The notes: generated from the sequence alone by a model not told the origin. A stretch of DNA of 32,000 nt from Thermoleophilia bacterium (GCA_050181915.1 JBFXCS010000002.1:481820-513819), one strand, 5' to 3'; counted from the first letter of the stretch, positions 2,637 to 27,941 are shown. Numbers and translations are program-made.

Positions 2637-3395
2637 GTGATCGACCTGCTCGCCAACCCCCTGCCCGCGACCGGCTCGGGTTCCCGGGGGGATGCCCGGG
2701 CGCTCGCCGCGGCGCGCGACGCCGAGGACGCCGGGGTGACCATGATGGTGTGCGCTCCGCCGCTCGCGGCGATGGCGCCCGCCGACGTCCACGCCGCGGT
2801 GGAGCGCCTGGCGGGCGCTCTCGGGCGGGCCGGGTCCGGGCTGCGCCTCGCCGCCGCGTCGGTGGTGCCGGTGGAGGGGCTCGCGCGCCTGGGCGACGAC
2901 GACCTGCGGGCCGCCAGCCTGGACGGCGCCGGCCGGTGGCTGCTGCTGCGGCTGCCCGAGCGCGGGTGGCCTCTGAGCCTGCCGTCGGCGCTCGCCGATC
3001 TGGAGATCCGGGGCTACCGCGCCATCGTCGCGGGGCCGGAGCGCGCCGACGCGGTGCAGCGCTCCCCCGACCGCCTGCGCGAGGCGGTGGGCCGCGGCGC
3101 CCTCGTGCTCATCACCGCGGCGGCGCTGTCGGGCGCGGACGGGCCGGCCCCGCAGCGCACAGCGACGGCGCTCATCCGCGGCGCATCAGCGCACCTGATC
3201 GGATCGGGCGCATCGGCCCCCGGCGCCCCCGGCCTGGCGGACGGCCTGGCGGTGGCCGCCCGGGCGGCCGGCGTCTATCCCGAGGCCCTGTCGTGGATGG
3301 TCGACGCCGGGCCCGAGGCGATCCTGGAGGGCCGCCCGGTCAGGCCGCCGCGCCTGGGCGGCCGCGCCGTGCACCCCCGCGCCGCGGGGAGCTGA
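2637..3395 (+). CDS. CpsB/YwqE-like PHP-fold protein with degenerate metal-binding motifs (probable pseudo-phosphatase)
   Basis: GTG start. The N-terminus MIDLLANPLP aligns with the MIDIHxHILP of CpsB-type tyrosine phosphatases, but the His residues are replaced. Later blocks behave the same way (GVTMMVCAPP, WLLLRLPE, IVAGPERAD, HLIGSGAS). Convergent with galE. Confidence 0.45.
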   Translation: MIDLLANPLPATGSGSRGDARALAAARDAEDAGVTMMVCAPPLAAMAPADVHAAVERLAGALGRAGSGLRLAAASVVPVEGLARLGDDDLRAASLDGAGRWLLLRLPERGWPLSLPSALADLEIRGYRAIVAGPERADAVQRSPDRLREAVGRGALVLITAAALSGADGPAPQRTATALIRGASAHLIGSGASAPGAPGLADGLAVAARAAGVYPEALSWMVDAGPEAILEGRPVRPPRLGGRAVHPRAAGS

Positions 3396-9569: not shown

Positions 9570-9602
9570 TTGACAAGTGGCATGGCATCCGCGTGCTATC
9601 CT
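9570..9602 (+). promoter_or_regulatory. candidate promoter of the defence operon
   Basis: Consensus -35 TTGACA at 9570-9575. The downstream candidates TGCTAT (18-nt spacer) and TATCCT (21-nt spacer) are both imperfect. Confidence 0.3.
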
Positions 9603-9627
9603 GGCAGACACGATGGAGGGGAACCCG

Positions 9628-9972
9628 ATGACCGACGAGCTTCAGCGCCGACAGGAGATCGGCCGCAACATCCGCGCCGCCCGCGACCGGGAGGGCCTCA
9701 CCCTCCAGGAGCTCGCCGCGCGCGTCGGCGGCGACGCGTCGCGCCTCAGCCGGATCGAGAGCGGGGGGAGGGGCATCGACAGCGTCCTGCTGTTCGACAT
9801 CGCCGACGCCCTCGATGTGTCGGTCGACTCGCTCCTTGTGAGCGGGCGCTTGGCGGCGTTCGCCCGGGGCGAGCGCCAGCCGGGTGAGGACGACCCCCAC
9901 GTGCGCTGGGGGATGCGGATGATCGAGGAGATCCAAGCCGCCGAGCGCCTCGTGAGGCGATATGGCCTCTGA
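9628..9972 (+). CDS. XRE-family helix-turn-helix regulator (CapH/ImmR-like)
   Basis: ATG at 9628, 8 nt after the RBS GGAGGGG. IGRNIRAARDREGLTLQELAARVGGDASRLSRIESGGR is a canonical XRE HTH. Overlaps the next gene by 11 nt. Confidence 0.8.
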   Translation: MTDELQRRQEIGRNIRAARDREGLTLQELAARVGGDASRLSRIESGGRGIDSVLLFDIADALDVSVDSLLVSGRLAAFARGERQPGEDDPHVRWGMRMIEEIQAAERLVRRYGL

Positions 9973-10756
9973 CCTTCGCCCGGAGCCGCCCTGGCTGGCC
10001 GGAGAGCGCGCCGCGCGCGCGCTGCGCTTCGAGCTCGGCCTCGGCCACGGGCCGATCGACATCTATGACGTCATCGAGCAGCGCGGCGTGGCGATCGCCT
10101 TCCGTGATCTGGGAGGCGACGACGGGCGCTACATCTTCCACAACGGCAAGGGGCTGATCCTCGTCACCTCCACCTGCGAGGAGGCCTCGCGGCAGCGGTT
10201 CACCGCCGCGCACGAGCTCGGGCATCACGAGCTGCACCGCTTCGACGCCAACGGCGAGGTCGAGACAATTCTGATCGACAAGACGGTCCTCGGCACCGGC
10301 GGCGACGCGCGCGAGCAGGCGGCCAACTCGTTCGCGGCGCGGCTGCTGCTGCCGACCGAGGCCCTTGAGGCGCGCTTTTCGGAGCGGCAGGACGTCACCG
10401 TCGAGCAGGTCGGCGAGCTCATGGACCGCTTCGGGCTCTCCTACACGGCGACCGTGTTCATGCTCCACAACGCCGGCCGGATCAGCAACGCCCGCCGTGA
10501 CGCTCTGCGCCGCGAGGGCGAGGGTCTCGTGCACCGGCTGTCGGCCCGCTCGGAGGAGCCGCGCAAGGCCGAGCCGCCGCACGAGCTTCAGCGCCAGCTG
10601 GCCAAGCTTTACCGGGCCGGGCTGGTGCCCGCCGAGCGCCTGGCGGAGCTCACCGGCATGTCGGTGGAGCAGGTCGCCGAGGAGTACGGCCCGCCCGAGG
10701 AGCCGGAGACCGACATCGGCAACCTCCTGCGCGAGATCGAGGGCGAGGAGGCCTGA
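9962..10756 (+). CDS. ImmA/IrrE-family (M78) zinc metallopeptidase (CapP/ImmA-like)
   Basis: HEXXH motif in FTAAHELGHHELH, downstream EQAANSFAARLLLP, and the typical XRE-ImmA gene pair. Confidence 0.85.
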   Translation: MASDLRPEPPWLAGERAARALRFELGLGHGPIDIYDVIEQRGVAIAFRDLGGDDGRYIFHNGKGLILVTSTCEEASRQRFTAAHELGHHELHRFDANGEVETILIDKTVLGTGGDAREQAANSFAARLLLPTEALEARFSERQDVTVEQVGELMDRFGLSYTATVFMLHNAGRISNARRDALRREGEGLVHRLSARSEEPRKAEPPHELQRQLAKLYRAGLVPAERLAELTGMSVEQVAEEYGPPEEPETDIGNLLREIEGEEA

Positions 10757-10758
10757 CC

Positions 10759-11421
10759 GTGGAGGAGGCCCTCGACCCGGAGGATCTCGAGGTGGGCACC
10801 GATACGTCGGTGCTCATCGACCTCGCCGAGGGCAAGGTGTTCCAGGGCCTCCACGAGCTCTTTCCGGCTGTCGGGCTGCCCGGCATGGTCAAGCAGGAGC
10901 TCGAGCGGCGCACCTCGCGCCTCAACACCATGGTTCTCGCCGCCGACTGGCTCGTCCCCATCCGGGCCGAGGAGCCCGAGGACCTCGGGTTCATCGCCGA
11001 CCTGCACCGCAGCCTGGGAGGCCCGCCCAAGAACGCCGGCGAGGCGGAGCTGATCGCGCTCGCGCGGCGCCACGACTGGGTCGCCCTGATCGAGGACAAC
11101 GCCCGCAGGGTGGCGATCCGCGAGGGCGTGCACGTGATCCGCCTGAGCACCCTCGCCGCCGCCGCGGCCGCCTGCGAGGTCGTCCCGGTCGACCGCGCCT
11201 GGGGCCTTCACCGCGGGTTCCACATGCGCCGCCCACCGCAGCGGATGCCGGCGATCGGCACCACGCCGGCTGACCGCGACCGCTTCGACCGAGCGGTCGA
11301 CGCGATCGGAGTCCTGGCTGGCCATCGCGGGCGCCCCGCCTGGCCCGGGCTCCTGCGCCATCCGACCCTCAAGCCCGGCCAGCTCGATGAGCTCGTGCGC
11401 CAGATCGGCGAGCGGCCGTGA
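10759..11421 (+). CDS. PIN-like (DUF3368-type) predicted nuclease with a ~70-aa C-terminal extension
   Basis: GTG start 2 nt after the ImmA stop, RBS GAGGAGG. Acidic PIN-like positions: GTDTSVLIDL, NAGEAELIALARRHDWVALIEDNARRVAIREGVHVIRLSTL. Confidence 0.55.
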   Translation: MEEALDPEDLEVGTDTSVLIDLAEGKVFQGLHELFPAVGLPGMVKQELERRTSRLNTMVLAADWLVPIRAEEPEDLGFIADLHRSLGGPPKNAGEAELIALARRHDWVALIEDNARRVAIREGVHVIRLSTLAAAAAACEVVPVDRAWGLHRGFHMRRPPQRMPAIGTTPADRDRFDRAVDAIGVLAGHRGRPAWPGLLRHPTLKPGQLDELVRQIGERP

Positions 11422-12656
11422 CGAGCACCGCGCCGATGCCGGGCGCGGCCGTCCGACCCGCGGACGGCGAGCCCCTGCGCGCGTTCGCCTCCTACAGCTG
11501 GAAGGCGCCCGCGGACATCGAGAGCATCGCCCGGCTCGTCATCGAGCTCCGCCTGCGCGGCTTCGTCACCTTCAGGGATGCAGAGGCGATGCCGCCGGCG
11601 GGTGGCATCGAGGCGGTCATCCGCGCCGAGCTCGCCCGCAGCACGGTCTTCGTGCCGTATTTGACCCCCGACTCGCTCGAGAGCGACCCGGTCGTCGACC
11701 TCGAGTTCCACACCGCCGCCGAGCTCCGGCGCCTGCAGGGCTCACCCGTCGTCCTGCCCGTGGCGCGCAACCTCGGCACGGACCGCAACAAGCTCACCAC
11801 GGCGACCTGGGCCCGCCTGCAGCATGACTTCTCCGCTCAATGGAACACGTTCCCCGGGCCCGGCGACGGACCACTCGATCTCGCCGACGCCGCCGCCCAC
11901 GCGAACAACGCGCTCCGCGCGAGCTTCGCCGAGGGCGCCGGGCCCGCGGACGGATGCTGGGAGCTGGGCCTGGCGACCCGCGGTGAGCGGCCGCCGCCCA
12001 CCCAGCTGACCGTCGATGCGACTGGCCTCGTCGGCGGTCCGGATGCCCGAGCCGGGTCTCTGGAGGACTGGGAGAGGATCTTCGCGGGCCTCTGCGACCT
12101 GAAGCGGGCCCTCACCGCCCATGGCCGCCGCCGCCGGATCCTTCTTCGCCCGGCCTGCCATCTGAGCGCCGCCCTCGCCGTCGGTTGGGTGTTCCGCCGG
12201 GCGGCCGGCTGGCGGCTGGAGGTGGCACATGAGGACGTCGAATGCCGCTCCTCCGACACGCTCGAGCACCCGGGGCTCGTGGTCACACGCGACTACGGCG
12301 CCTTCAGCGCCCGCGGCGGGCGCCTCGTCGTCTGCATCGACCTGGTTCCGCGCGGTATCCGCGACAGCGTCATCCGGGCGCAGGCCGCCGCGCCGCGGGC
12401 GGTGCTGTCGATCAGCGCCGCCGACGGCTCCCTCCGGATCCCGGTCGACGAGCTCGGCGCGATGGCTGGCGCCGCCGCGGCGGCGATCAAGGACCTCCGC
12501 GGCGAGACCCACGCCGAGGAGGTCGCCCTCTACCTGGCGAGTCCCGCACCCTTCGCGGCGCTTCTCGGCGCCGAGTTCGGCGCGCTCGGCTGCCCGCTGC
12601 TGCTGCACGAGCACGACAACGCCACCTACCAGCCCTCCATCGTGATCCCGGGGTGA
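11418..12656 (+). CDS. TIR-SAVED fusion protein (predicted cyclic-oligonucleotide-activated NADase effector)
   Basis: The N-terminal ~130 aa are TIR-like: FASYSWK...LRGFVTFRDAE...STVFVPYLTPDSLESDPVVDLEF. The C-terminal ~280 aa resemble SAVED: ILLRPACHLSAALAVGWVFRR...ALYLASPAPFAALLGAEFG. GTGA overlap with the PIN-like gene. Confidence 0.7.
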   Translation: MTSTAPMPGAAVRPADGEPLRAFASYSWKAPADIESIARLVIELRLRGFVTFRDAEAMPPAGGIEAVIRAELARSTVFVPYLTPDSLESDPVVDLEFHTAAELRRLQGSPVVLPVARNLGTDRNKLTTATWARLQHDFSAQWNTFPGPGDGPLDLADAAAHANNALRASFAEGAGPADGCWELGLATRGERPPPTQLTVDATGLVGGPDARAGSLEDWERIFAGLCDLKRALTAHGRRRRILLRPACHLSAALAVGWVFRRAAGWRLEVAHEDVECRSSDTLEHPGLVVTRDYGAFSARGGRLVVCIDLVPRGIRDSVIRAQAAAPRAVLSISAADGSLRIPVDELGAMAGAAAAAIKDLRGETHAEEVALYLASPAPFAALLGAEFGALGCPLLLHEHDNATYQPSIVIPG

Positions 12657-12658
12657 CC

Positions 12659-13627
12659 ATGACCGCCGACGCCTACTACCGCCAACTGCTGAAGGACATC
12701 GCCGTTCCGATGGAGGACATCGAGGCCGCCCGCGAGGCGCGCGACGACCTCGGCGCCGCGGCCGTCGAGATCCTGAAGGGCTGGGGCCTCGGGTCCCCGG
12801 GGTTCTTCGCCGCCGGCGCGCTCGCGGCTGGCACCCAGATCGCCCCCCTGAACGACGTGGATCTCGTCGTTCGGGCGAACAAGATCCGCACTGGTTGGAA
12901 GGACGCGCCGCGGAGGGCGCTCGAGGACCTCTGCGTGGCGATGGGTGCGGTCGGCTATACCTGCGAGACCGGCGCCCACGCGGTCAAGGTGATGTTGCCC
13001 GGTGAGCGGTTCACCGCCGACGTCGTCTTCGGGTGCGTACATCCCGAGCAGGGTCTGTGGATCCCGCACTGCCCCAAGGGCGAGGTGCCGGCCTGGATCC
13101 GGACCGACCCGAAGGCGCACCGCGACCAGGTCAAGCAGCGCAATCGTGACCTCGGGGTCGAGTTCGCGCGGGAGATCCGGATCGCGAAGGCGCTGAACCG
13201 CAAATGGGCGCTCGCCGACGCTGAGGGCCGAAAGCCGCTCAGCTCGTTCCACATGACCGCGCTCGCGCTCGCCCTCATCACAACACCGGTCGACCACGCC
13301 CGGACAACCCCGCGCTTCCTCGAGGCGGCGGCCCGCCGTGTCCTGACACCCATGCGCGACCCGGCCGGCGTCGGACCCGATCTCGAGGCCCGGGACCCCG
13401 CCCGTGCGTCAGCCCTGCTGGCGGAGGCGGCTCGGCTCACCCGCGAGGCCCTCGCGGCCGGCGACGACGCCGAGCGGATCCTGCGCACGGTGTTCGGGGA
13501 TCCGGCGACCACGACCGGTCTCGCGGCAGGCAGGCGAGCGAGCGTCGTGGTCGGCGGGACGCTCGCCCTCGGCACGGCGGGCCGGGCGGTCGGGATGGGT
13601 CGCTCCTATGGGGACCTGGCCCGCTAG
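12659..13627 (+). CDS. CD-NTase / SMODS-type nucleotidyltransferase (second-messenger synthase)
   Basis: ATG 2 nt after the TIR-SAVED stop. Pol-beta NTase signature GALAAGTQIAPLNDVDLVV (G[SA]x10DxD), third acidic residue in FTADVVFG, then WIRTDPKAH and IRIAKALNRKW as in CD-NTases. Confidence 0.75.
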   Translation: MTADAYYRQLLKDIAVPMEDIEAAREARDDLGAAAVEILKGWGLGSPGFFAAGALAAGTQIAPLNDVDLVVRANKIRTGWKDAPRRALEDLCVAMGAVGYTCETGAHAVKVMLPGERFTADVVFGCVHPEQGLWIPHCPKGEVPAWIRTDPKAHRDQVKQRNRDLGVEFAREIRIAKALNRKWALADAEGRKPLSSFHMTALALALITTPVDHARTTPRFLEAAARRVLTPMRDPAGVGPDLEARDPARASALLAEAARLTREALAAGDDAERILRTVFGDPATTTGLAAGRRASVVVGGTLALGTAGRAVGMGRSYGDLAR

Positions 13628-19073: not shown

Positions 19074-20180
19074 TCAACCGGCCTGCGGCGGCGCGGCGGG
19101 CAGCCGCACGGTGGCGCGAAGCCCTCCCTCGGTGCGGGGGGCGAGGGTGAGGGTCCCGTCGTGCGCCTGGACGATGCTCCTGACGATCGCCAGGCCGAGG
19201 CCGACGCCGGCGTGGTCGGTGCGGATGCGTCTGCTGCCGCGCTGGAACGGCTCGGCGAGCGTGGCGACCAGCTGGGGGGTGAGCTGCTCGCCGGTGTTCT
19301 CGACCGTGAGCGCCGCTCCCCCGGGGTGAGCGCCGGTCGTGACCCACACGGTGCCGCGGTCGGGCAGGTTGTGGACGATCGCGTTGTGCACGAGGTTCAT
19401 CGCCATCTGCAGCAGCAGGGCGGGTGAGCCGACGGTGGGGGTCATGTCGCCGGAGGTCTCGATGGTGGCGCCGCGCCGCTCCGCGAGGGGCAGCAGCGAC
19501 TCGGTGGCCTCCTCGGCGATGAGGGACAGGTCGGCGTGCTCGCGGACGAATGACCGCTGATCGGCGCGGCTGAGCAGGAGCAGCGCCTCGGTGAGGTCGA
19601 TCGCCCGGGTGTTGACCGCGCGGAGGCGGTCGATGAGCTCGTCGTCGTCGCGGCTCGGATCCTTGCGGGCCACGTCGAGCAGCGTCTGCGTGACCGCCAG
19701 CGGGGTGCGCAGCTCGTGGGAGGCGTTGGCGGCGAACCGCTGCTGCTCCGCGACCTGCGCCTCGAGGCGCGCGAGCATGGCGTCGAAGGCGTCGGCGAGC
19801 TCGCGGAACTCGTCCCGGCGGCCATGCAGCCGGATGCGGTGGGAGAGCGATCCGCTCGCGGCCAGGCGCGTGGCGTCGGTGATGCGGTCCAGCGGGGTGA
19901 GCATCCGGCCGGCCAGGATCCAGCCGCCCAGGAGGCCGAACACCAGCAGGAAGGCCAGCGCGATGGCCGCCTTCGGGGCGAAGGCGTCGAGCAGGTCGGA
20001 GCGGTTGGGGATGAAGGGGGCGGGCGCGCGATCGGGCCCCACCAGGATCACCCTGTCGGGTACGTAGCGCAGCAGGAACACCCACACGACCGCGAGCAGC
20101 AGGGCTCCCGCCACCATCAGGAAGCCGGCGTAGCTGAGGGTGAGCTTGAGGCGGACGCTCAGGCCGGGGGATCTATCCAC
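19074..20180 (-). CDS. vanS: VanS-type sensor histidine kinase
   Basis: Two N-terminal TM helices with a short loop, a HAMP domain, H-box ASHELRTPL, N-box NLVHNAIVHN, G-box GVGLGLAIV. Overlaps vanR by 8 nt and is adjacent to vanHAX. Confidence 0.8.
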   Translation of the reverse strand: MDRSPGLSVRLKLTLSYAGFLMVAGALLLAVVWVFLLRYVPDRVILVGPDRAPAPFIPNRSDLLDAFAPKAAIALAFLLVFGLLGGWILAGRMLTPLDRITDATRLAASGSLSHRIRLHGRRDEFRELADAFDAMLARLEAQVAEQQRFAANASHELRTPLAVTQTLLDVARKDPSRDDDELIDRLRAVNTRAIDLTEALLLLSRADQRSFVREHADLSLIAEEATESLLPLAERRGATIETSGDMTPTVGSPALLLQMAMNLVHNAIVHNLPDRGTVWVTTGAHPGGAALTVENTGEQLTPQLVATLAEPFQRGSRRIRTDHAGVGLGLAIVRSIVQAHDGTLTLAPRTEGGLRATVRLPAAPPQAG

Positions 20181-20856
20181 GGTCCCCTTCCCCGCGCCCG
20201 CCGTCGATGCGGTACCCGGCGCCGGGCACGGTGGCGATGATCCAGGGCTCGCCGAGGCGCTTGCGCAGCGCCGAGACCGTGATGCGCACCGCGTTGGTGA
20301 ACGGGTCCGCGTTCCGATCCCAGGCCCGCTCCAGCAGCTCCTCCGCGCTGACGACGCCGCCCTCGGCGGCGACCAGGACCTCGAGCACCGCGAACTGCTT
20401 GCGGGTGAGCGGGACGTAGCGGCCGTCGCGGTAGACCTCGCGGCGGAACGGGTCGAGGCGCAGGCCGGCGATCTCGCGCACGGGCGGGCGGTGGTGGGCG
20501 CGGCGGCGGTCGAGCGCCCTGAGGCGGAGCACGAGCTCGCGGAGCTCGAACGGCTTCGTGAGGTAGTCGTCGGCGCCGAGCCCGAACCCGGAGGCCTTGT
20601 CGTCGAGACGGTCGGCGGCGGTCAGCATGAGGATCGGCATGCCGCTGCCGGAGGCGACGATCCGTCCGGCGATCTCGTCGCCGGACGGCCCGGGGATGTC
20701 CCGGTCGAGGACGGCGATGTCATAGGCGTTGGCGCCCAGCAGCTCCAGGGCGGTGTCGCCGTCACCCGCGATGTCCGCCGCGATCGCCTCCAGCCGCAGC
20801 CCGTCGCGGATGGCCTCCGCCAGATAGGGCTCGTCCTCGACGAGCAGCACGCGCAT
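20173..20856 (-). CDS. vanR: VanR-type OmpR/PhoB-family response regulator
   Basis: MRVLLVEDEPYLAEAIRDGLRLEAIAADIAGDGDTALELL...DIAVLDRDIPGPSGDEI...TKPFELRELVLRLRAL plus a winged-helix C-terminus. As I recall it, this closely matches actinomycete VanR. Confidence 0.85.
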   Translation of the reverse strand: MRVLLVEDEPYLAEAIRDGLRLEAIAADIAGDGDTALELLGANAYDIAVLDRDIPGPSGDEIAGRIVASGSGMPILMLTAADRLDDKASGFGLGADDYLTKPFELRELVLRLRALDRRRAHHRPPVREIAGLRLDPFRREVYRDGRYVPLTRKQFAVLEVLVAAEGGVVSAEELLERAWDRNADPFTNAVRITVSALRKRLGEPWIIATVPGAGYRIDGGRGEGDRG

Positions 20857-20877
20857 CCGCCGATGCTAACCGAGCCG

Positions 20878-20943
20878 CGCATATCGTCGGCATATCGGAA
20901 ACCGCATACGCGCCGGCAACGCCGCCGGCCCTGAGATGGCGGC
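20878..20943 (+). promoter_or_regulatory. van promoter module copy A (also faces vanR divergently)
   Basis: ATATCG-N5-ATATCG (20881, 20892), invariant CATACGCGCCGGCAACGC, -10-like TGAGAT (20932-20937), GTG at 20944. On the minus strand, TAGCAT (20863-20868) lies 6 nt before the vanR ATG. Confidence 0.6.
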
Positions 20944-21021
20944 GTGACCTCCAGTGAGCCGGGACGAACAGCGGTCCGCGCCCGATCGACCGTCCCCGTC
21001 GGCTCCGCCCGTGCGGCATGA
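20944..21021 (+). CDS. possible 25-codon leaderless upstream ORF coupled to the carboxypeptidase gene
   Basis: GTG sits exactly 20 nt after the module core, as in copies B and D. VTSSEPGRTAVRAR parallels the N-termini of VanH (MIRGEPRRTATRR) and the VanY-like protein (VTHGEPARTMRRVR). Its TGA overlaps the ATG at 21018 (ATGA). Confidence 0.25.
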   Translation: MTSSEPGRTAVRARSTVPVGSARAA

Positions 21022-22052
21022 GCACGAGGCCGCGGCCGCGCCGCGGGACGGCGGCCCTGTACCGTCGCCGCCGCCGACGCGCGCTGATCGGCGCGATCAT
21101 CGCCCTCCTCCTCGCGGCCGCGGCCTTCGCGCCGCCCCTCCACCTGCTCGACGACGGCGGCCGCGGCTCCCCGCCCGACCTCTCGGGCAGCGGCGCGCCG
21201 CGCGACGACGCGGACAGCGCCTACCTGTCGACGGACGGATGGCCGCTTCAGGGCCAGGGGGCGTACGTGATCGGCGACGGCCGGCCGGCGGTGAGCCCCC
21301 ACCAGCGGCCGGTCCCGATCGCCAGCGTGGCGAAGGTGATGACCGCCTACCTCGTGCTCAAGCACCATCCGCTGCGGGCCGGCGAGAGCGGCCCGCTGTT
21401 CACGGTCACCCAGGACGACGTCGAGGACACCGAGGCGAGGCTCCGAGGGGGCCAGTCGGTGGTCCCCGTCAGCGCCGGCGAGCAGCTCACCGAGCGGGAT
21501 GCCCTCATGGCGATCCTGCTGCCGTCGGCGAACAACGTCGCGGTGCTCGTCGCGCGTCAGGTCTCCGGCAGCGTCCCCGCCTTCGTCGAGGAGATGAACC
21601 GCACCGCGCGCGAGCTGGGGATGTCCCAGACGACCTACACCGATCCGAGCGGATACGACGACGGCACGGTGTCGACGGCCCTCGACCAGCTGCGCCTGGC
21701 GCGGGTGGTGGCCGAGGACGAGACGCTGGCGGCCATGATGGCCACCCGCACCCACTGGCTGCCGGTCGCCGGCGAGGTGACCAACACCAACGCCCTGCTC
21801 GGCCATGACGGCTTCGTCGGCATGAAGACCGGCTCGCACCAGGCGGCCGGCGGCTGCCTGATGTTCCGGGTCGTGTGGCCCACCGGCGGCGGCGACGTGA
21901 CGCTGATCGGCGTGGTGCTCGGCCAGCGGGGGGACAGCCTGATCACCGCGGGACACGATGCGGCCGAGCAGCTGGCGGACCGCCTGGCGCCGGAGGCGTA
22001 TCGCCCGCATATCGAAAACCCCATACGCGCCGGCAACGCCCCGCCGCCTTGA
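21018..22052 (+). CDS. serine-type D-Ala-D-Ala carboxypeptidase (S11, PBP5/DacB-like), membrane anchored
   Basis: N-terminal Arg-rich segment plus a TM helix. Carries the SxxK (SVAKVMT), SxN (PSANN) and KTG (MKTGSH) motifs. The 3' end runs through van module copy B. Confidence 0.8.
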   Translation: MSTRPRPRRGTAALYRRRRRRALIGAIIALLLAAAAFAPPLHLLDDGGRGSPPDLSGSGAPRDDADSAYLSTDGWPLQGQGAYVIGDGRPAVSPHQRPVPIASVAKVMTAYLVLKHHPLRAGESGPLFTVTQDDVEDTEARLRGGQSVVPVSAGEQLTERDALMAILLPSANNVAVLVARQVSGSVPAFVEEMNRTARELGMSQTTYTDPSGYDDGTVSTALDQLRLARVVAEDETLAAMMATRTHWLPVAGEVTNTNALLGHDGFVGMKTGSHQAAGGCLMFRVVWPTGGGDVTLIGVVLGQRGDSLITAGHDAAEQLADRLAPEAYRPHIENPIRAGNAPPP

Positions 22053-22060
22053 CTGGATGC
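21996..22060 (+). promoter_or_regulatory. van promoter module copy B (vanHAX-murF operon)
   Basis: GTATCG-N5-ATATCG (21998, 22009), CATACGCGCCGGCAACGC, TTGACT (22049-22054), ATG at 22061. Confidence 0.6.
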
Positions 22061-23065
22061 ATGATCCGCGGCGAACCGAGGCGCACCGCGACCCGCCGCA
22101 CCCCGCCGGCGACGGGTATCACGATCTACGGGTGCGGGCGGGACGAGGCCGCCCTGTTCCGGGAGAGGGCGCCTCGCCTCGGCGTCGATCCGACGATCAC
22201 CGAGGCGCCGTTGACCGACGGCAACGTCGGGCTGGCGCTCGGGAACCGATGCATCAGCGTCGGCCACAAGGCCCGTGTCGCGAACTCCGCGCTTCTCGCG
22301 CTCGGCGAGGCCGGCGTGACCTACATCTCCACGCGAAGCGTCGGATGCGACCACATCGACGTGAGCTACGCCCGGAGCCGGGGCATCACCGTCGAGACCG
22401 TCGCCTACTCACCCGACAGCGTCGCCGACTACACGCTGATGCTGATGCTGATGTCGCTGCGACATGCCGCATCCGTCATCAGGCGCGCGGACGCCCACGA
22501 CTACCGGCTGAGCGATGCGCGCGGACGAGAGCTGCGCGACCTGACCGTCGGGGTGGTCGGGACGGGGCGCATCGGCGGCGCGGTGATGGACCGGCTGCGG
22601 GGGTTCGGCTGCACGGTGCTCGCCCACGACGCGCGGCCCGCGACCTATGCCGACTACGTCACCCTCGATGAGCTGATCGAGCGGAGCGACGTCGTGACGC
22701 TCCACACGCCGCTCACCGCCGAGACGCACCATCTCCTCGACGGCCGCCGGATCGCGCGGATGAAGCCCGGTGCGGTGATCGTCAACACCGGCCGCGGCGC
22801 GCTCATCGACACCGAGGCGCTCGTCTCGGCACTGGAGGGCGGCCGGTTGGGCGGCGCGGCGCTGGACGTCCTCGAAGGCGAGGAGGGGGTCTTCTACGCC
22901 GACCGCAGGGGCACGCCCATCGACGGTGACCTGCTGCGGCTGCACAGGCTGCCGAACGTGCTGATCAGCCCGCACACCGCCTACTACACCGACCGCGCCC
23001 TGAGCGACACCGTCGAGCGCTGCCTGGCCAACTGCCTGGCCTTCGCGGGTCGAGGTCGGGCATGA
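22061..23065 (+). CDS. vanH: VanH D-specific 2-hydroxyacid (D-lactate) dehydrogenase
   Basis: ITIYGCGRDEAALF, NAD motif VGVVGTGRIGGAV, VNTGRGALID, ISPHTAYYT. ATGA overlap with vanA. Confidence 0.9.
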   Translation: MIRGEPRRTATRRTPPATGITIYGCGRDEAALFRERAPRLGVDPTITEAPLTDGNVGLALGNRCISVGHKARVANSALLALGEAGVTYISTRSVGCDHIDVSYARSRGITVETVAYSPDSVADYTLMLMLMSLRHAASVIRRADAHDYRLSDARGRELRDLTVGVVGTGRIGGAVMDRLRGFGCTVLAHDARPATYADYVTLDELIERSDVVTLHTPLTAETHHLLDGRRIARMKPGAVIVNTGRGALIDTEALVSALEGGRLGGAALDVLEGEEGVFYADRRGTPIDGDLLRLHRLPNVLISPHTAYYTDRALSDTVERCLANCLAFAGRGRA

Positions 23066-24102
23066 ACAGGCTGCGGGTCGGGATCCTCTTCGGCGGCTGC
23101 TCCGAGGAGCATCCGATCTCCGTCAAATCGGCGCAGGAGGTCGCGCGCCACCTCGACACCGCCAAGTACGAGCCGTTCTACGTCGGGATCACGACGAGCG
23201 GCGCCTGGAGGCTCTGCGATGGCCCCGGCGCGGGCTGGGAGGACGGGAACTGCCGTCCGGCCGTCCTGTCGCCGGACAGGAGCGTCCACGGCCTGCTCGT
23301 CCTGGAGCGGGGCCGGTACGAGACGATCGGCCTCGACCTGGTGCTGCCCGTCCTGCACGGCAGGCTCGGCGAGGACGGCGCGATGCAGGGCCTGCTGGAG
23401 CTCTCCGGCATCCCATACGCCGGCTGCGACGTCCCGAGCTCCGCCCTGTGCATGGACAAGTCCCTCACCTACACGGTCGCCCGCGCCGCGGGGATCGCCA
23501 CGCCGGGGTTCCGGATCGTGACGGCGGGCGAGGGCATCGATCCCGGTCTGTTCACCTACCCCGTCTTCGTGAAGCCGGCCCGCTCGGGCTCGTCGTTCGG
23601 CGTCAGCAGGGCGTCGCGCCGAGAGGACCTGCCGGGAGCGCTCGAGACCGCCGGGCGGTACGACTCGAAGGTGCTGATCGAGGAGACCGTCGTCGGCAGC
23701 GAGGTCGGATGCGCCGTCCTCGGGAACGGCCCGGACCTGCGGGTCGGCGAGGTCGACCGGATCGCGCTGTCCCACGGCTTCTTCAGGATCCATCAGGAGG
23801 ACGCGCCGGAGACGGGCTCCGAGAACTCGGTCGTGACCGTTCCGGCGGACATCCCGGAGGAGTCGCGCCTGCTCGTCCGGGAGACGGCGAAGACCGTCTA
23901 TCGCGCCCTGGGATGCAGGGGGCTGTCGCGGGTGGACATGTTCCTGAAGGAGGACGGAGAGGTGGTCCTCAACGAGGTCAACACGCTGCCCGGCCTGACC
24001 TCCTACAGCCGCTACCCGAGGATGATGGCGGCCGCGGGACTGACGCTCTCCGAGGTGATCGACCGGATGGTGTCGCTGGCGCTGGCGGGCGACGGACGAT
24101 GA
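23062..24102 (+). CDS. vanA: VanA-type D-alanine--D-lactate ligase
   Basis: MNRLRVGILFGGCSEEHPISVKSA, HGFFRIHQE, LNEVNTLPGLTSYSRYPRM. ATP-grasp Ddl fold with the VanA/B-type insertion. ATGA overlaps on both sides. Confidence 0.9.
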   Translation: MNRLRVGILFGGCSEEHPISVKSAQEVARHLDTAKYEPFYVGITTSGAWRLCDGPGAGWEDGNCRPAVLSPDRSVHGLLVLERGRYETIGLDLVLPVLHGRLGEDGAMQGLLELSGIPYAGCDVPSSALCMDKSLTYTVARAAGIATPGFRIVTAGEGIDPGLFTYPVFVKPARSGSSFGVSRASRREDLPGALETAGRYDSKVLIEETVVGSEVGCAVLGNGPDLRVGEVDRIALSHGFFRIHQEDAPETGSENSVVTVPADIPEESRLLVRETAKTVYRALGCRGLSRVDMFLKEDGEVVLNEVNTLPGLTSYSRYPRMMAAAGLTLSEVIDRMVSLALAGDGR

Positions 24103-24707
24103 CGGGCGACTTCGCCTTCGTCGACGAGCTCGTGGCCGGGGTACGCTGGGACGCGAAGTACGCGACGTGGGACAACTTCACCGGCAGGCCGGTGGACGGG
24201 TATCTGGCCAATCGCATCGTGGGCACGAGGGCCATGTGCGCCGCCCTGGAGCGGGCGCGAGACGAGGCCGCGACCCGTGGCCTCGGCCTGCTGCTCTGGG
24301 ACGGATACCGCCCTCAGCGCGCCGTGGATTGCTTCCTGCGCTGGGCGCGGCAACCGGAGGACGGCCGGACGAAGCTGCGGCACTACCCCAACATCGACAG
24401 GGCCCAGATGTTCGAGAGAGGGTACGTGGCGGCGCGGTCGGGCCACACCCGGGGCAGCACCGTCGACCTGACGCTCTACCACCTGGCCAGCGGCGAGCTC
24501 GTCCCCATGGGCGGCGGCTACGACCTGATGGATGCGGTCTCGCATCACGGAGCGCGCGGCATCACGCGGGCCGAGGCGGGCAACCGGCGATGCCTCCGCT
24601 CGCTCATGGAGGCCTGCGGGTTCCGCCCCTACGAGCGCGAGTGGTGGCACTACACCCTTCGCGGGGAGCCGTATCCGGACTCCTACTTCGATTTCACCAT
24701 CTCGTGA
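24099..24707 (+). CDS. vanX: VanX D-Ala-D-Ala dipeptidase
   Basis: WDGYRPQRAV, SGHTRGSTVDLT, EWWHYTL zinc-dipeptidase motifs; 202 aa. Confidence 0.9.
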   Translation: MTGDFAFVDELVAGVRWDAKYATWDNFTGRPVDGYLANRIVGTRAMCAALERARDEAATRGLGLLLWDGYRPQRAVDCFLRWARQPEDGRTKLRHYPNIDRAQMFERGYVAARSGHTRGSTVDLTLYHLASGELVPMGGGYDLMDAVSHHGARGITRAEAGNRRCLRSLMEACGFRPYEREWWHYTLRGEPYPDSYFDFTIS

Positions 24708-24732
24708 GGGCCGGCGGTGTCCGGGGTGACGG

Positions 24733-26079
24733 GTGCGCTGCTCGACCGCCGAGCTGACGGCCCGTCTGGGCGGTGAGCTGGTCGGGCCCGATGTGGTCGT
24801 CGAGGGGGCGGGCATCGACTCGAGGACGATCCGGCATGGGCAGCTCTACGTTCCGATCACGACCCGGCGCGACGGTCACGCCTTCATCCCGGCGGCGCTC
24901 GAGGCGGGCGCGCCGGCCTACCTCACCGCGCGGGAGCCGGTCGGCGGGACGGCCATCCGCGTCCGCGACACCGCCGCCGCCCTGCTGCGCCTCGGGGAGC
25001 TGGCCCGCGGTCGGCTCGGCGGCGCGATCGGCATCACTGGGTCGGTGGGCAAGACCACCACCAAGGACCTGCTGGCCGGTTGCCTGGCGACGACCTTCCG
25101 CACCGCCGCCAGCGAGCGCTCCTTCAACAACGAGCTGGGCCTCCCCCTGACGCTGTTCAACGCGCCGGAGGCCGCGCGCTGGGCGGTCCTCGAGATGGGG
25201 GCCCGGCGGGCGGGGGACATCGCGCGGCTGGCGCGGGTCGCACGACCCGAGGTCGGCGTCGTGACCAGCGTCGACATGGCGCACGTGGAGTACCTGGGCG
25301 ATCTCGACGGCGTGGCCCGCGCCAAGGGCGAGCTGGTGGCCGCCCTGCCGGCATCGGGTGTCGCGGTCCTGAACTTCGACGACCCCCGGGTCCGGGGCAT
25401 GGCGTCGCTCGGCGCATGTCCCGTGCTGGGGTACGGGGTGGACGGCCACGCCGAGGTGCGGGCCGAACGGGTCAGGCTCGACCGGGACCTGCGCGCCCGG
25501 TTCCGCCTGTCGTCGCCGTGGGGCCGGGCCGAGGTGCGGCTGGCGCTGCACGGCGTGCAGCAGGTCGCCGACGCGCTGGCGGCGGCGGCGGCCGCGCTGT
25601 GGTGCGGGGTCCCCATCGAGGCCGTGACCGCGGCGCTGGCGGTGAGCCGGGGCTCGCCCTGGCGCATGGAGGTCCATCGCCTGCCCGGCGGCCCCGTCCT
25701 GGTCGTCGACTGCTTCAACGCCATCCCCGCGTCGGCCGAGGCGGCCGTGCGCTCGCTGGCCGCGTTGCCGGGCCAGCGCCGGCTGGCGCTCCTCGGGCTG
25801 ATGGCCGAGCTGGGGGACCGCAGCGCCTCCGAGCATCATCGGATCGCCCTCGTGGCGGAGGAGCTCGGCATCGACGTGGTGGGGTACCGGACCGGCCTCT
25901 ACGGCGGGGCGTACGTGACCGGCGTCGACGAGGCCGTCGCCCTGCTGCGCACGATGGGCCCGGGTGACGCGGCACTCGTCAAGGGCAGCCGCGTGACGCG
26001 GCTCGAGGAGGTGGTGCACGCCTACGCGAGGGCCGTGGGCGCGTCGCCGCTCATCCTCGGCGCCGAGGCGCCCGGGTAG
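24733..26079 (+). CDS. murF: MurF paralog (UDP-MurNAc-tripeptide--D-alanyl-D-alanine/D-lactate ligase) inside the van operon
   Basis: GITGSVGKTTTKD P-loop, NNELGLPLTL, Mur ligase middle and C-terminal domains. No van module or obvious terminator separates it from vanX (25-nt gap). Confidence 0.85.
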   Translation: MRCSTAELTARLGGELVGPDVVVEGAGIDSRTIRHGQLYVPITTRRDGHAFIPAALEAGAPAYLTAREPVGGTAIRVRDTAAALLRLGELARGRLGGAIGITGSVGKTTTKDLLAGCLATTFRTAASERSFNNELGLPLTLFNAPEAARWAVLEMGARRAGDIARLARVARPEVGVVTSVDMAHVEYLGDLDGVARAKGELVAALPASGVAVLNFDDPRVRGMASLGACPVLGYGVDGHAEVRAERVRLDRDLRARFRLSSPWGRAEVRLALHGVQQVADALAAAAAALWCGVPIEAVTAALAVSRGSPWRMEVHRLPGGPVLVVDCFNAIPASAEAAVRSLAALPGQRRLALLGLMAELGDRSASEHHRIALVAEELGIDVVGYRTGLYGGAYVTGVDEAVALLRTMGPGDAALVKGSRVTRLEEVVHAYARAVGASPLILGAEAPG

Positions 26080-26097
26080 CGGCCTCGTGCCGCGGCC

Positions 26098-26165
26098 CGG
26101 CGATATCGCCGACATATCGAGAACCGCATACGCGCCGGCAACGCCGCACCCGCTGTACTCGCCGC
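26098..26165 (+). promoter_or_regulatory. van promoter module copy C (dioxygenase gene)
   Basis: ATATCG-N5-ATATCG (26102, 26113), CATACGCGCCGGCAACGC, TGTACT (26153-26158), ATG at 26166. Confidence 0.6.
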
Positions 26166-26966
26166 ATGACCTACCACGACGCATCAGCAGAGATCACCAC
26201 CGCGGAGGCGGCCAGGGCCGTGACGGACGACGGCTGGTCGGTGGTCGGAGTCCTCGACGGGCCCCTCGCCCGCCGTCTGCTCCAGGCGGTGGACGAGGTG
26301 ACGGCCCGATCCGCCGACGCCGGCGGACCGCTCCACCGGCTGTCGGGCCTGGCGCAGCACCCCGATCTGGCGGCGGTCGTCGACTGGCCGCCCCTCCTGG
26401 CGCTGGCGGTCGAGCTCCTGTCGCCCAACGTCTACATCAACCACTCCCACCTCGACGTCCACCCGCCCCACCCGCCCACCGGCGCCCGCCGCTGGCATCG
26501 CGACAACGGCCTGATGGGCCGGGACATGCGGCTGCTCTGGCGGGACCAGCCGAGGGTGACCCTGAAGGTCGCCGTCTACCTCACCGACGTGGAGTCCCCG
26601 GACGACGGCGCACTGGAGGTGGTGCCCCGCAGTCACCTCGACACGACGTCGCGATACCCCACCGAGGAGCAGCCCGACGGAGAGCCCATCCTCGGGCCCG
26701 CCGGCACGGTCGCCGTCTTCGACGCCCGGCTCTGGCACCGCCGGCGGGACAACCTCGGCACCCGCACCCGACGCGCCATGTTCATGGCGTACAGCTACCG
26801 CTGGCTGACCTCGCGCGACATCCCGTTCGAGGACGTGCCGGAGTGGGCCGACCTGTCCCCGATCCGCCGCCAGCTGCTCGGAGACCCGACGGTCGACCCG
26901 TTCTACTGGGCCTCCGGCGAGCTCCCGCTCGACCCCCGCTCCGCCGGCTACCCGGAGGCCGCCTGA
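26166..26966 (+). CDS. phytanoyl-CoA dioxygenase (PhyH)-family Fe(II)/2-oxoglutarate oxygenase
   Basis: HxD in RRWHRDNG, distal His in FDARLWHRRRDN, and R in TRRAMFMAY. Length and pattern fit the PhyH family. Confidence 0.7.
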   Translation: MTYHDASAEITTAEAARAVTDDGWSVVGVLDGPLARRLLQAVDEVTARSADAGGPLHRLSGLAQHPDLAAVVDWPPLLALAVELLSPNVYINHSHLDVHPPHPPTGARRWHRDNGLMGRDMRLLWRDQPRVTLKVAVYLTDVESPDDGALEVVPRSHLDTTSRYPTEEQPDGEPILGPAGTVAVFDARLWHRRRDNLGTRTRRAMFMAYSYRWLTSRDIPFEDVPEWADLSPIRRQLLGDPTVDPFYWASGELPLDPRSAGYPEAA

Positions 26967-26975
26967 TCGGAGCCG

Positions 26976-27042
26976 GCGCATATCGTCGGCGTATCGGAAA
27001 CGGCATACGCGCCGGCAACGCGGCGCCGCCTTGACTGGGGGC
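26976..27042 (+). promoter_or_regulatory. van promoter module copy D (VanY-like gene)
   Basis: ATATCG-N5-GTATCG (26980, 26991), CATACGCGCCGGCAACGC, TTGACT (27031-27036), GTG at 27043. Confidence 0.6.
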
Positions 27043-27627
27043 GTGACCCACGGCGAGCCGGCACGGACGATGCGACGGGTTCGGATGCGGTGGATCCGCG
27101 TCGCCGGCCTGCTCGTCGCCATGGGGGCGATCGCCGCGACCCTCGGCCATCAGATCCTGGCGTCCTCGGCGCTCGGCGAGGCCGACGGCGCCGTCCCCGA
27201 CGGCACGACGGTCTTCGACGACGCGGTCCCGGGCGTGGCCAACCTCGACCCGTCCCTCCTCGGCGCCCTGCGCCGAGCCGCGGCCGTCGCCGCGGGCGAG
27301 GGGATCACCCTCTACGTCGACAGCGGCTGGCGCTCGCCGGAGTACCAGGAGCACCTGCTCCGCGAGGCGACCCGGAAGTACGGCTCGCAGGAGGAGGCCG
27401 CCCGCTGGGTGGCCACCCCCGTCGCCTCCGCCCACGTGTCGGGGGACGCGGTCGACATCGGGCGCTCCGACGCCCGGGCATGGCTGTCCCGGCACGGCGC
27501 CGGCTACGGGTTGTGCCAGATCTACGGCAACGAGCCCTGGCACTACGAGCTGCGCCCCGAGGCCATCGATCGCGGCTGCCCTCCCCCGTACGCCGACCCG
27601 ACGCACGACCCGAGGATGCGGAGGTGA
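27043..27627 (+). CDS. vanY: VanY-type (M15B) zinc D,D-carboxypeptidase, membrane anchored
   Basis: SGWRSPEYQ, SAHVSGDAVDI, NEPWHYE motifs and an N-terminal TM helix. The GTG at 27043 is chosen by its spacing to the promoter module; alternatives are TTG 27031 and ATG 27070/27085. Confidence 0.8.
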   Translation: MTHGEPARTMRRVRMRWIRVAGLLVAMGAIAATLGHQILASSALGEADGAVPDGTTVFDDAVPGVANLDPSLLGALRRAAAVAAGEGITLYVDSGWRSPEYQEHLLREATRKYGSQEEAARWVATPVASAHVSGDAVDIGRSDARAWLSRHGAGYGLCQIYGNEPWHYELRPEAIDRGCPPPYADPTHDPRMRR

Positions 27628-27653
27628 CCCGGCACCGATCCGCACGGGCCGGG

Positions 27654-27941
27654 TCAGCCCCCGGCGACCACCTCGTCGAAGAACTCGATCGTGGTCGACT
27701 CCAGGTCGACCGTGGCCTCGGCCATCGCGGCGCGCAGGTCCTCGTCGGCGAGGTACGCGTCGGCGGCGGCGCGGCTGTCGAAGGTGTGCGTCACCACGAT
27801 GTCGGTGCGATCGCCGCTCGCGCTGAGGGCGGCGTGCGCCCGCACGCCGCCGGCCCGCTGCGCGTCGGCGAAACCGCGATAGACGGCGAGCCAGGCGTCG
27901 AAGTCCCCCACCCGATGGCGGATCAGGACGGTCGTCCTCAT
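27654..27941 (-). CDS. small ferredoxin-like (dimeric alpha/beta-barrel type) protein, function unknown
   Basis: The ATG at 27939-27941 is preceded by the strong RBS GAGGAGGAAG and makes an ATGA overlap with the aldolase stop. 95 aa (MRTTVLIRHRVGDFDAWLAVY...). The rest of the 332-aa ORF is off-frame junk. Confidence 0.5.
   Translation of the reverse strand: MRTTVLIRHRVGDFDAWLAVYRGFADAQRAGGVRAHAALSASGDRTDIVVTHTFDSRAAADAYLADEDLRAAMAEATVDLESTTIEFFDEVVAGG

Follow-up and report, generated by a model that had tools for sequence, protein, structure and literature searches.

Introduction

Clusters of van genes are among the best-studied resistance systems; as effectors they are known to encode ligases, dehydrogenases, peptidases, transferases of the Mur/Fem type and a small number of membrane proteins. 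The locus described here raises the question of what an oxygenase is doing in such company. Our study concerns a stretch of 32,000 nucleotides from a Thermoleophilia bacterium (GCA_050181915.1), referred to below as the window, in which a gene for a PhyH-family Fe(II)/2-oxoglutarate (2OG) dioxygenase lies within a van cluster. The first-pass annotation had described this gene as an unassigned member of the glycopeptide-resistance regulon and had offered three options for its product: an enzyme that modifies a cell-wall precursor, an enzyme that modifies the antibiotic itself, or a hitch-hiker that acquired the promoter. The van cluster itself is of an already known kind; the new part is a conserved, enzymatically distinct additional effector.

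The vanRSHAXY genes, with or without murF, have been described in Solirubrobacterales, and murF, murG and GNAT genes have been found co-localised with van genes in actinobacteria (Andreo-Vidal et al. 2021, PMC8698665). The words "oxygenase" and "hydroxylase" do not occur in that survey of actinobacterial van clusters, and our literature searches returned no paper in which a PhyH/2OG oxygenase is connected with van genes or with the hydroxylation of peptidoglycan. Like the actinobacterial van accessories (murF/murF2, murG, GNAT, the FemX-like vanK, and vanJ), the oxygenase is a VanRS-associated and lineage-restricted extra beside vanHAX; all of these accessories, the oxygenase included, are presumably needed for the reprogrammed cell wall to work. 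Unlike them, it brings oxygenase chemistry and is also found in VanRS-like operons that have no vanHAX.

Organization of the van cluster

A complete van cluster occupies positions 19074-27627 of the window, with vanRS divergent from the effector genes. The reverse strand carries the genes for the VanS histidine kinase (19074-20180) and the OmpR-family response regulator VanR (20173-20856), whose top NCBIfam models are VanS-O and VanR-O, respectively; VanR presumably binds the direct repeats described below. On the forward strand follow the genes for a Peptidase_S11 D-Ala-D-Ala carboxypeptidase (21018-22052), the D-lactate dehydrogenase VanH (22061-23065), a VanA-type D-Ala-D-Lac ligase (23062-24102), the dipeptidase VanX (24099-24707), a van-linked MurF (24733-26079), the oxygenase (26166-26966) and a VanY-like M15 carboxypeptidase (27043-27627). 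The VanH and VanY-like assignments come from family profiles, the score of the ligase exceeds the cut-off of the D-Ala-D-Lac equivalog, and the frame of vanX was set by homology to the Peptidase_M15 genes of relatives. The oxygenase gene therefore stands where the first-pass annotation had placed it, between vanHAX-murF and the VanY-like gene.

The van-linked MurF is 75-86% identical to other van-linked copies and 67-74% identical to the housekeeping MurF of the lineage, and from the latter value the van-linked gene looks like a within-lineage duplicate and not an import. Housekeeping murF is divergent from ddl, whose product is 34% identical to VanA (loci L058-L096, for example L068 4914-7344). 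The window has a G+C content of 73%. An Rfam scan of it returned two tRNAs and nothing else, and no glycopeptide biosynthetic cluster was found in it, its remainder being ordinary chromosome together with a CBASS-like locus.

Sequence and predicted structure of the oxygenase

The oxygenase gene encodes a protein of 266 aa, and ORF analysis of the window shows that its ATG at 26166 is the earliest possible in-frame start. The product matches the Pfam family PhyH (PF05721) with an E value of 2.4e-12 and 48 bits, against a gathering cut-off of 22. The Fe(II) triad consists of H111 and D113 in the motif WHRD and H191 in the motif LWHRRRDN; these three residues and R202, which corresponds to H191+11, do not vary among 16 aligned homologues, which span 49-89% identity. 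These results bear out the earlier description of a 266-aa PhyH dioxygenase with a facial triad. In human PHYH, R275 lies about 11 residues past the distal His and binds the C5 carboxylate of 2OG, and by analogy R202 may be the 2OG-binding Arg of the oxygenase. The HxD...H residues align with the iron ligands of the solved structure of TlxI, and an alignment to EctD was obtained as well. On its sequence, the protein belongs to the PhyH-type Fe(II)/2OG dioxygenases; its active-site residues are intact, and activity is predicted.

An AlphaFold model of the oxygenase (pLDDT 76, pTM 0.79) predicts a double-stranded beta-helix. Foldseek aligned this model to TlxI, SptF, AndA, FtmOx1, EasH and AviO1 with TM scores of 0.66-0.73 and at most 20% identity, the probability being 1.0 for the first four. 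What the oxygenase has in common with TlxI/J, SptF, AndA, FtmOx1, EasH, AviO1, KanJ, EctD and human PHYH is the beta-helix fold (TM about 0.7), the HxD...H residues and an Arg at His+11; it differs from the solved PhyH-type enzymes in that identity is so low and the substrate-binding regions are not conserved. The structural neighbours are natural-product tailoring enzymes and, at this identity, are uninformative on specificity, and sequence and profile searches of the PDB, like Foldseek, returned only generic PhyH-type tailoring oxygenases that give no clue to the substrate. The solved PhyH-type enzymes act on secondary metabolites, compatible solutes or acyl-CoA, and none of them is tied to peptidoglycan or to antibiotic resistance.

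Many homologues are labelled "ectoine hydroxylase" by JGI, and the oxygenase shows weak similarity to EctD structures; on this basis it could be taken for EctD, which makes hydroxyectoine as a stress protectant. This identity was rejected, because the NCBIfam equivalog TIGR02408 gives only 22.8 bits against a cut-off of 336.5. There are also no ect genes nearby in any locus that we examined, and we consider such an identity almost certainly wrong.

The protein is acidic (pI 5.3) and free of cysteine. Searches of its sequence for a signal peptide, a lipobox or a transmembrane segment found none, and the only segment of mild hydrophobicity forms a helix in the core of the AlphaFold model. These properties bear on the suggestion that the enzyme modifies the antibiotic. 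According to this explanation, the oxygenase would inactivate a glycopeptide, or some other antibiotic that binds lipid II, by hydroxylation or oxidative damage, and such enzymatic inactivation would be a new mechanism; the nearest structural relatives (TlxI, SptF, FtmOx1, AviO1 and KanJ) do tailor complex secondary metabolites, and in some lineages MacB-type ABC transporters are linked to the gene. Glycopeptides, however, act at the outer face of the membrane, and are not known to enter the cytoplasm, whereas the enzyme would depend on intracellular Fe(II), 2OG and O2. That a cytoplasmic enzyme of this kind modifies the drug directly is therefore disfavoured, and the family members in the dcw and cwlM neighbourhoods described below are hard to square with a drug-specific enzyme. 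We regard this explanation as very unlikely.

A promoter cassette shared with the core van genes

A 19-nt core, GCATACGCGCCGGCAACGC, occurs four times in the window (20904, 22021, 26126 and 27003), against 0.01 occurrences expected by chance, and belongs to a full cassette repeat of about 93 nt that is likewise present in four copies. The four cassettes, all on the forward strand, head the S11 carboxypeptidase gene (m1, 20877-20946, which fills the intergenic region between vanR and this gene and has a GTG at 20944), vanH and with it vanHAX-murF (m2, 21994-22063, ATG at 22061), the oxygenase gene (m3, 26099-26165) and the VanY-like gene (m4, 26976-27045, GTG at 27043). Within m3, also on the forward strand, there are three direct repeats (ATATCG at 26103-26108, ATATCG at 26114-26119 and ATACGC at 26128-26133), the core at 26126-26144 and a -10-like hexamer, TGTACT, at 26154-26159, the end of which lies 6 nt before the ATG. 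The full van module that had been claimed upstream of the oxygenase is thus present, with 21 nt between the end of the core and the start codon.

From the window and related loci we collected 63 distinct copies of the cassette, with the consensus gCATATCGtCGGCaTATCGAAAAcCgCATACG.GC.GGCAACaCc.CGctGccTTgAcTGgcGGC-ATG/GTG; in 56 of them the ATG or GTG lies at a fixed offset. The direct repeats have the form ATATCG-N5-ATATCG-N8-ATACGC, with successive starts 11 nt and 14 nt apart, and OmpR/PhoB-family regulators, of which VanR is one, typically have repeats spaced by 11 nt. The usual hexamer is TTGACT, in place of which m3 has TGTACT; both are atypical in having no A at position 2. A scan of positions 20700-27900 for sigma-70 consensus promoters and terminators found none, and m3 contains no Shine-Dalgarno sequence before the oxygenase ATG. 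Since there are 6 nt between the hexamer and the start codon and no Shine-Dalgarno sequence, we infer that the mRNAs are leaderless, and initiation at the oxygenase ATG would be of this kind. Judging from the same sequences, VanR probably binds the cassette, and glycopeptides would be expected to induce the oxygenase. The cassette may also serve as an inducible leaderless expression module.

Similarity among the cassettes does not end at the start codon. It runs into the coding sequence over the first 12-15 codons or so (x-x-x-x-E-P-x-R-T-x-x-R; alignment A1), so the mobile unit comprises the promoter, the start codon and an N-terminal peptide. This peptide is common to the S11 carboxypeptidase, VanH and VanY (20944-20990, 22061-22110 and 27043-27090), and through the cassette-encoded codons VanH gains an N-terminal extension of about 19 aa over canonical VanH; the oxygenase has only M-T-Y of it. 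The S11 ORF, which begins with an ATG (21018), and the cassette GTG at 20944 are in different reading frames, and the GTG frame stops after 25 codons. Since the S11 orthologue in locus L003 begins at the cassette GTG (VSYSEPARTAARR...), the S11 gene of the window has either a frameshift, real or due to a sequencing error, or a 74-nt leader.

Conservation of the oxygenase in related van clusters

Two family-specific peptide patterns were used for a scan of genomes, which identified 23 loci, and all genomic orthologues with at least 80% identity and readable flanks sit in van clusters. The hosts include Solirubrobacter soli, S. deserti, Patulibacter medicamentivorans and P. defluvii, together with metagenome-assembled genomes (MAGs) of Solirubrobacteraceae and Paraconexibacteraceae. 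For a scan in the reverse direction, metagenomes were searched with MurF, and a locus was taken as decidable if it had enough downstream sequence, two further van-type loci being cut off. The oxygenase was found in 16 of the 18 decidable van-type murF loci and was missing from the other two (L046 and L047), so the absence from related van clusters that the first-pass annotation had named as speaking against the gene's membership is not what we observed. Among the housekeeping murF-ddl loci of the lineage recovered in the metagenomic MurF scan, none contained either the oxygenase or the cassette.

The usual gene order is vanRS followed by (S11)-vanHAX-murF-(LytR_C gene)-oxygenase-(vanY), the genes in parentheses being variably present. 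The position of the oxygenase differs between clusters: it may follow murF or the LytR_C gene, precede vanH or adjoin vanS. The L004 copy opens a cassette-driven oxygenase-vanH... operon, and the L009 copy is a neighbour of vanS. The oxygenase has a cassette immediately in front of it in L003-L007, L009, L010, L023 and 11 metagenomic loci, about 20 in all. Oxygenase genes that have no cassette of their own stand close behind murF or the LytR_C gene, which are themselves cassette-driven.

The LytR_C gene, an extra gene between murF and the oxygenase in many related clusters, encodes a membrane-anchored protein of about 195 aa and often has its own cassette (for example L008 5697-6413, L013 9321-9908, L012 at about 170-759, and L032 7341-8000). 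It is missing in the window, where the gap between murF and the oxygenase is 86 nt (26080-26165).

Nonsynonymous divergence (dN) between the window genes and those of relatives was estimated by the Nei-Gojobori method, the proportions of synonymous differences being similar across genes. The median dN was 0.078 for the oxygenase, 0.11 for MurF, 0.14 for VanX, 0.154 for the S11 carboxypeptidase, 0.156 for VanA and 0.162 for VanH, so that the oxygenase has the lowest value among the effector genes compared. The gene is under strong purifying selection. With a cis element in common with the core van genes and a conserved linkage to them, the oxygenase very probably belongs, in our assessment, to the VanRS regulon of Solirubrobacterales-type actinobacteria, as an effector that selection maintains.

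It is conceivable that a metabolic oxygenase with no role in resistance merely acquired a mobile cassette, or came to lie at a chance site next to murF. The cassette is indeed prone to copying, as its 63 distinct copies stand before at least six types of gene; the canonical van clusters of other phyla function without such an enzyme; and the gene is absent from two related loci. Nevertheless, the constraint on the oxygenase, the strongest by dN among the effectors, argues strongly against the status of a passenger, and the gene has been kept through several rearrangements of gene order and is spread over at least three families or genera. Moreover, members of the tight family (at least 50% identity) occur almost only with two-component-system/ABC genes or cell-wall genes. 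The hitch-hiker option of the first-pass annotation is disfavoured by these observations, and we consider it improbable.

In one MAG (L024), positions 10001-10186 hold a remnant of the oxygenase between vanR and vanH, which corresponds to residues 150-211 and is 81% identical; an ABC module lies downstream of the van cluster there, and the remnant looks like the decay of the gene in one lineage.

Family members outside van clusters

The oxygenase family is tight: in a search of 1.84 billion cluster representatives, one full-length representative scored 436 bits and the next full-length relatives at most 200 bits. Named members come from Patulibacter, Capillimicrobium and Acidimicrobiales, and a second database search with the family profile gave essentially the same proteins again. 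The names of the next-nearest relatives are uninformative, as these are unnamed or generically named metagenome proteins, and the distant relatives (at most 200 bits) lie in contexts unrelated to the cell wall or to van genes.

Homologues with 70-75% identity were identified in Acidimicrobiales-like MAGs, where the oxygenase is the last gene of a hypothetical-PG_binding_1-MacB-type ABC operon, divergent from a VanRS-like two-component system whose VanR is 52% identical. These operons contain neither vanHAX nor murF, which indicates that the role of the oxygenase is independent of the D-Lac pathway. The van cassette was sought in the same ABC-type operons and is absent from them; what they have is another element, GGTAACAGG...CTGTTACC, likewise conserved, and a leader with a normal Shine-Dalgarno sequence. 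In the alignment of this region (A3; L026 at about 3000-3115, L014 and L028), the upstream element reads GGTAACAGG-N-CAACAAGCTCTGTTGAGCCCCTGTTACC with an inverted repeat and is followed by the ribosome-binding site GGAAGGAG.

The ABC module is also present, driven by the cassette, inside some van clusters of Solirubrobacterales (L004, L048 and L051). As a four-gene module it consists of a hypothetical protein of 206 aa, a PG_binding_1 protein of about 540 aa, a MacB-type ABC ATPase and an FtsX permease (L026 3115-7383, L004 2960-5849, L051 9645-13111, L048 33-1182, L055 and L057). In the Acidimicrobiales-like MAGs the module is under VanRS-like control, and it may constitute a transporter-based (BceAB-like) defence against glycopeptides.

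More divergent homologues lie next to genes of cell-wall synthesis and division. In L018, a homologue with 58% identity is located between ftsQ and ftsZ of a canonical dcw cluster, in the order ftsI-mur-ftsW-murC-murB-ftsQ-oxygenase-ftsZ-ylmE-sepF-divIVA; four tandem units resembling CCCCATTGCGGCTGAC are found between ftsQ and this homologue, at about 9590-9660. In L029 and L030, a homologue with 54% identity directly follows cwlM, downstream of murJ, in the block murJ-degV-trxB-trxA-cwlM. Another, with 55% identity, adjoins a different two-component system and a MacB transporter (L118 and L119), and one in the range of 50-58% lies upstream of an ABC-2 transporter (L116). Other homologues of 50-58% identity are in contexts without cell-wall genes, namely Pirin/thiolase, TPR-AAA and luciferase-like. 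Cell-wall synthesis or the response to envelope antibiotics is the recurring theme of the informative neighbourhoods.

These neighbourhoods also bear on the possibility that the oxygenase is a metabolic support or regulatory enzyme. It could carry out a KanJ-like oxidative deamination or alpha-hydroxylation of D-Ala, or of D-Ala-terminated precursors, and so supply pyruvate for VanH, or it could hydroxylate a division or regulatory protein and adjust growth during cell-wall stress. Such roles agree with the presence of the oxidative deaminase KanJ, a PhyH-family enzyme, among the sequence matches, with the position of the gene directly after murF or, in L004, directly before vanH, and with the homologue between ftsQ and ftsZ. 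Yet a supply of pyruvate for VanH does not explain the 70-75% homologues in operons without vanHAX or murF, and the PhyH family is not known to include a protein hydroxylase. We therefore judge an enzyme of either sort unlikely.

A possible role in cell-wall precursor metabolism

The option of the first-pass annotation that our study favours is the modification of a cell-wall precursor, because family members are present in dcw and cwlM loci as well. When a glycopeptide is sensed, phosphorylated VanR would bind the three repeats of the cassette, upstream of and across the -35 region, and would switch on transcription of a leaderless mRNA that opens with the ATG at 26166. The product would be a soluble cytoplasmic Fe(II)/2OG hydroxylase that oxidises a cytoplasmic cell-wall metabolite, the likeliest substrate being a nucleotide-linked (UDP-MurNAc) peptidoglycan precursor, a residue of the stem peptide or a building block. 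Such a reaction would complement the D-Ala-D-Lac reprogramming without depending on it. We hold the combined statement, a VanRS-regulon effector that acts as a hydroxylase on a cytoplasmic cell-wall metabolite, with slightly less than even confidence, and the cell-wall-metabolite mechanism as such is a tentative proposal that we regard as possible but doubtful. The literature that we searched documents no hydroxylated peptidoglycan component in these organisms.

A functional parallel to the proposed reaction exists in mycobacteria, where NamH hydroxylates UDP-N-acetylmuramic acid in the cytoplasm and alters susceptibility to agents that target the cell wall. The likeness is one of function, the hydroxylation of a nucleotide-linked peptidoglycan precursor, which for the oxygenase is only proposed by analogy. 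NamH is a Rieske-type enzyme with a fold and a cofactor requirement unrelated to those of the PhyH-type oxygenase, and it is a constitutive housekeeping enzyme that is not under VanRS control.

As a more speculative extension, somewhat unlikely in our estimation, the oxygenase and its relatives could form a small family of Fe(II)/2OG hydroxylases dedicated to the cell wall, with a housekeeping function in some Acidimicrobiia (the dcw and cwlM loci) and VanR-inducible in Solirubrobacterales, that modify a peptidoglycan precursor such as a UDP-MurNAc-peptide or a stem residue. If true, this would be a D-Lac-independent layer of defence against lipid II-binding antibiotics that has gone unnoticed so far, and the metabolism of peptidoglycan precursors would include a chemical step, as yet unrecognised, that is relevant when lipid II is attacked. 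The novelty of the locus lies in a redox enzyme whose conservation exceeds that of VanH, VanA and VanX, which has the van promoter cassette, and which has relatives in dcw and cwlM loci; glycopeptide resistance may here include a cell-wall step that has not been described.

A CBASS-like defence locus in the window

A CBASS-like defence locus was identified at 9574-13627 of the window. It comprises genes for an XRE-type HTH protein (9574-9972) and an M78/ImmA-like peptidase (9962-10756), which we take to be a CapH/CapP-like pair, and for a TIR-SAVED effector (11418-12656), followed by a weak SMODS/CD-NTase-like ORF (12653-13627). The G+C content of the window falls to 68% at 9-10 kb.
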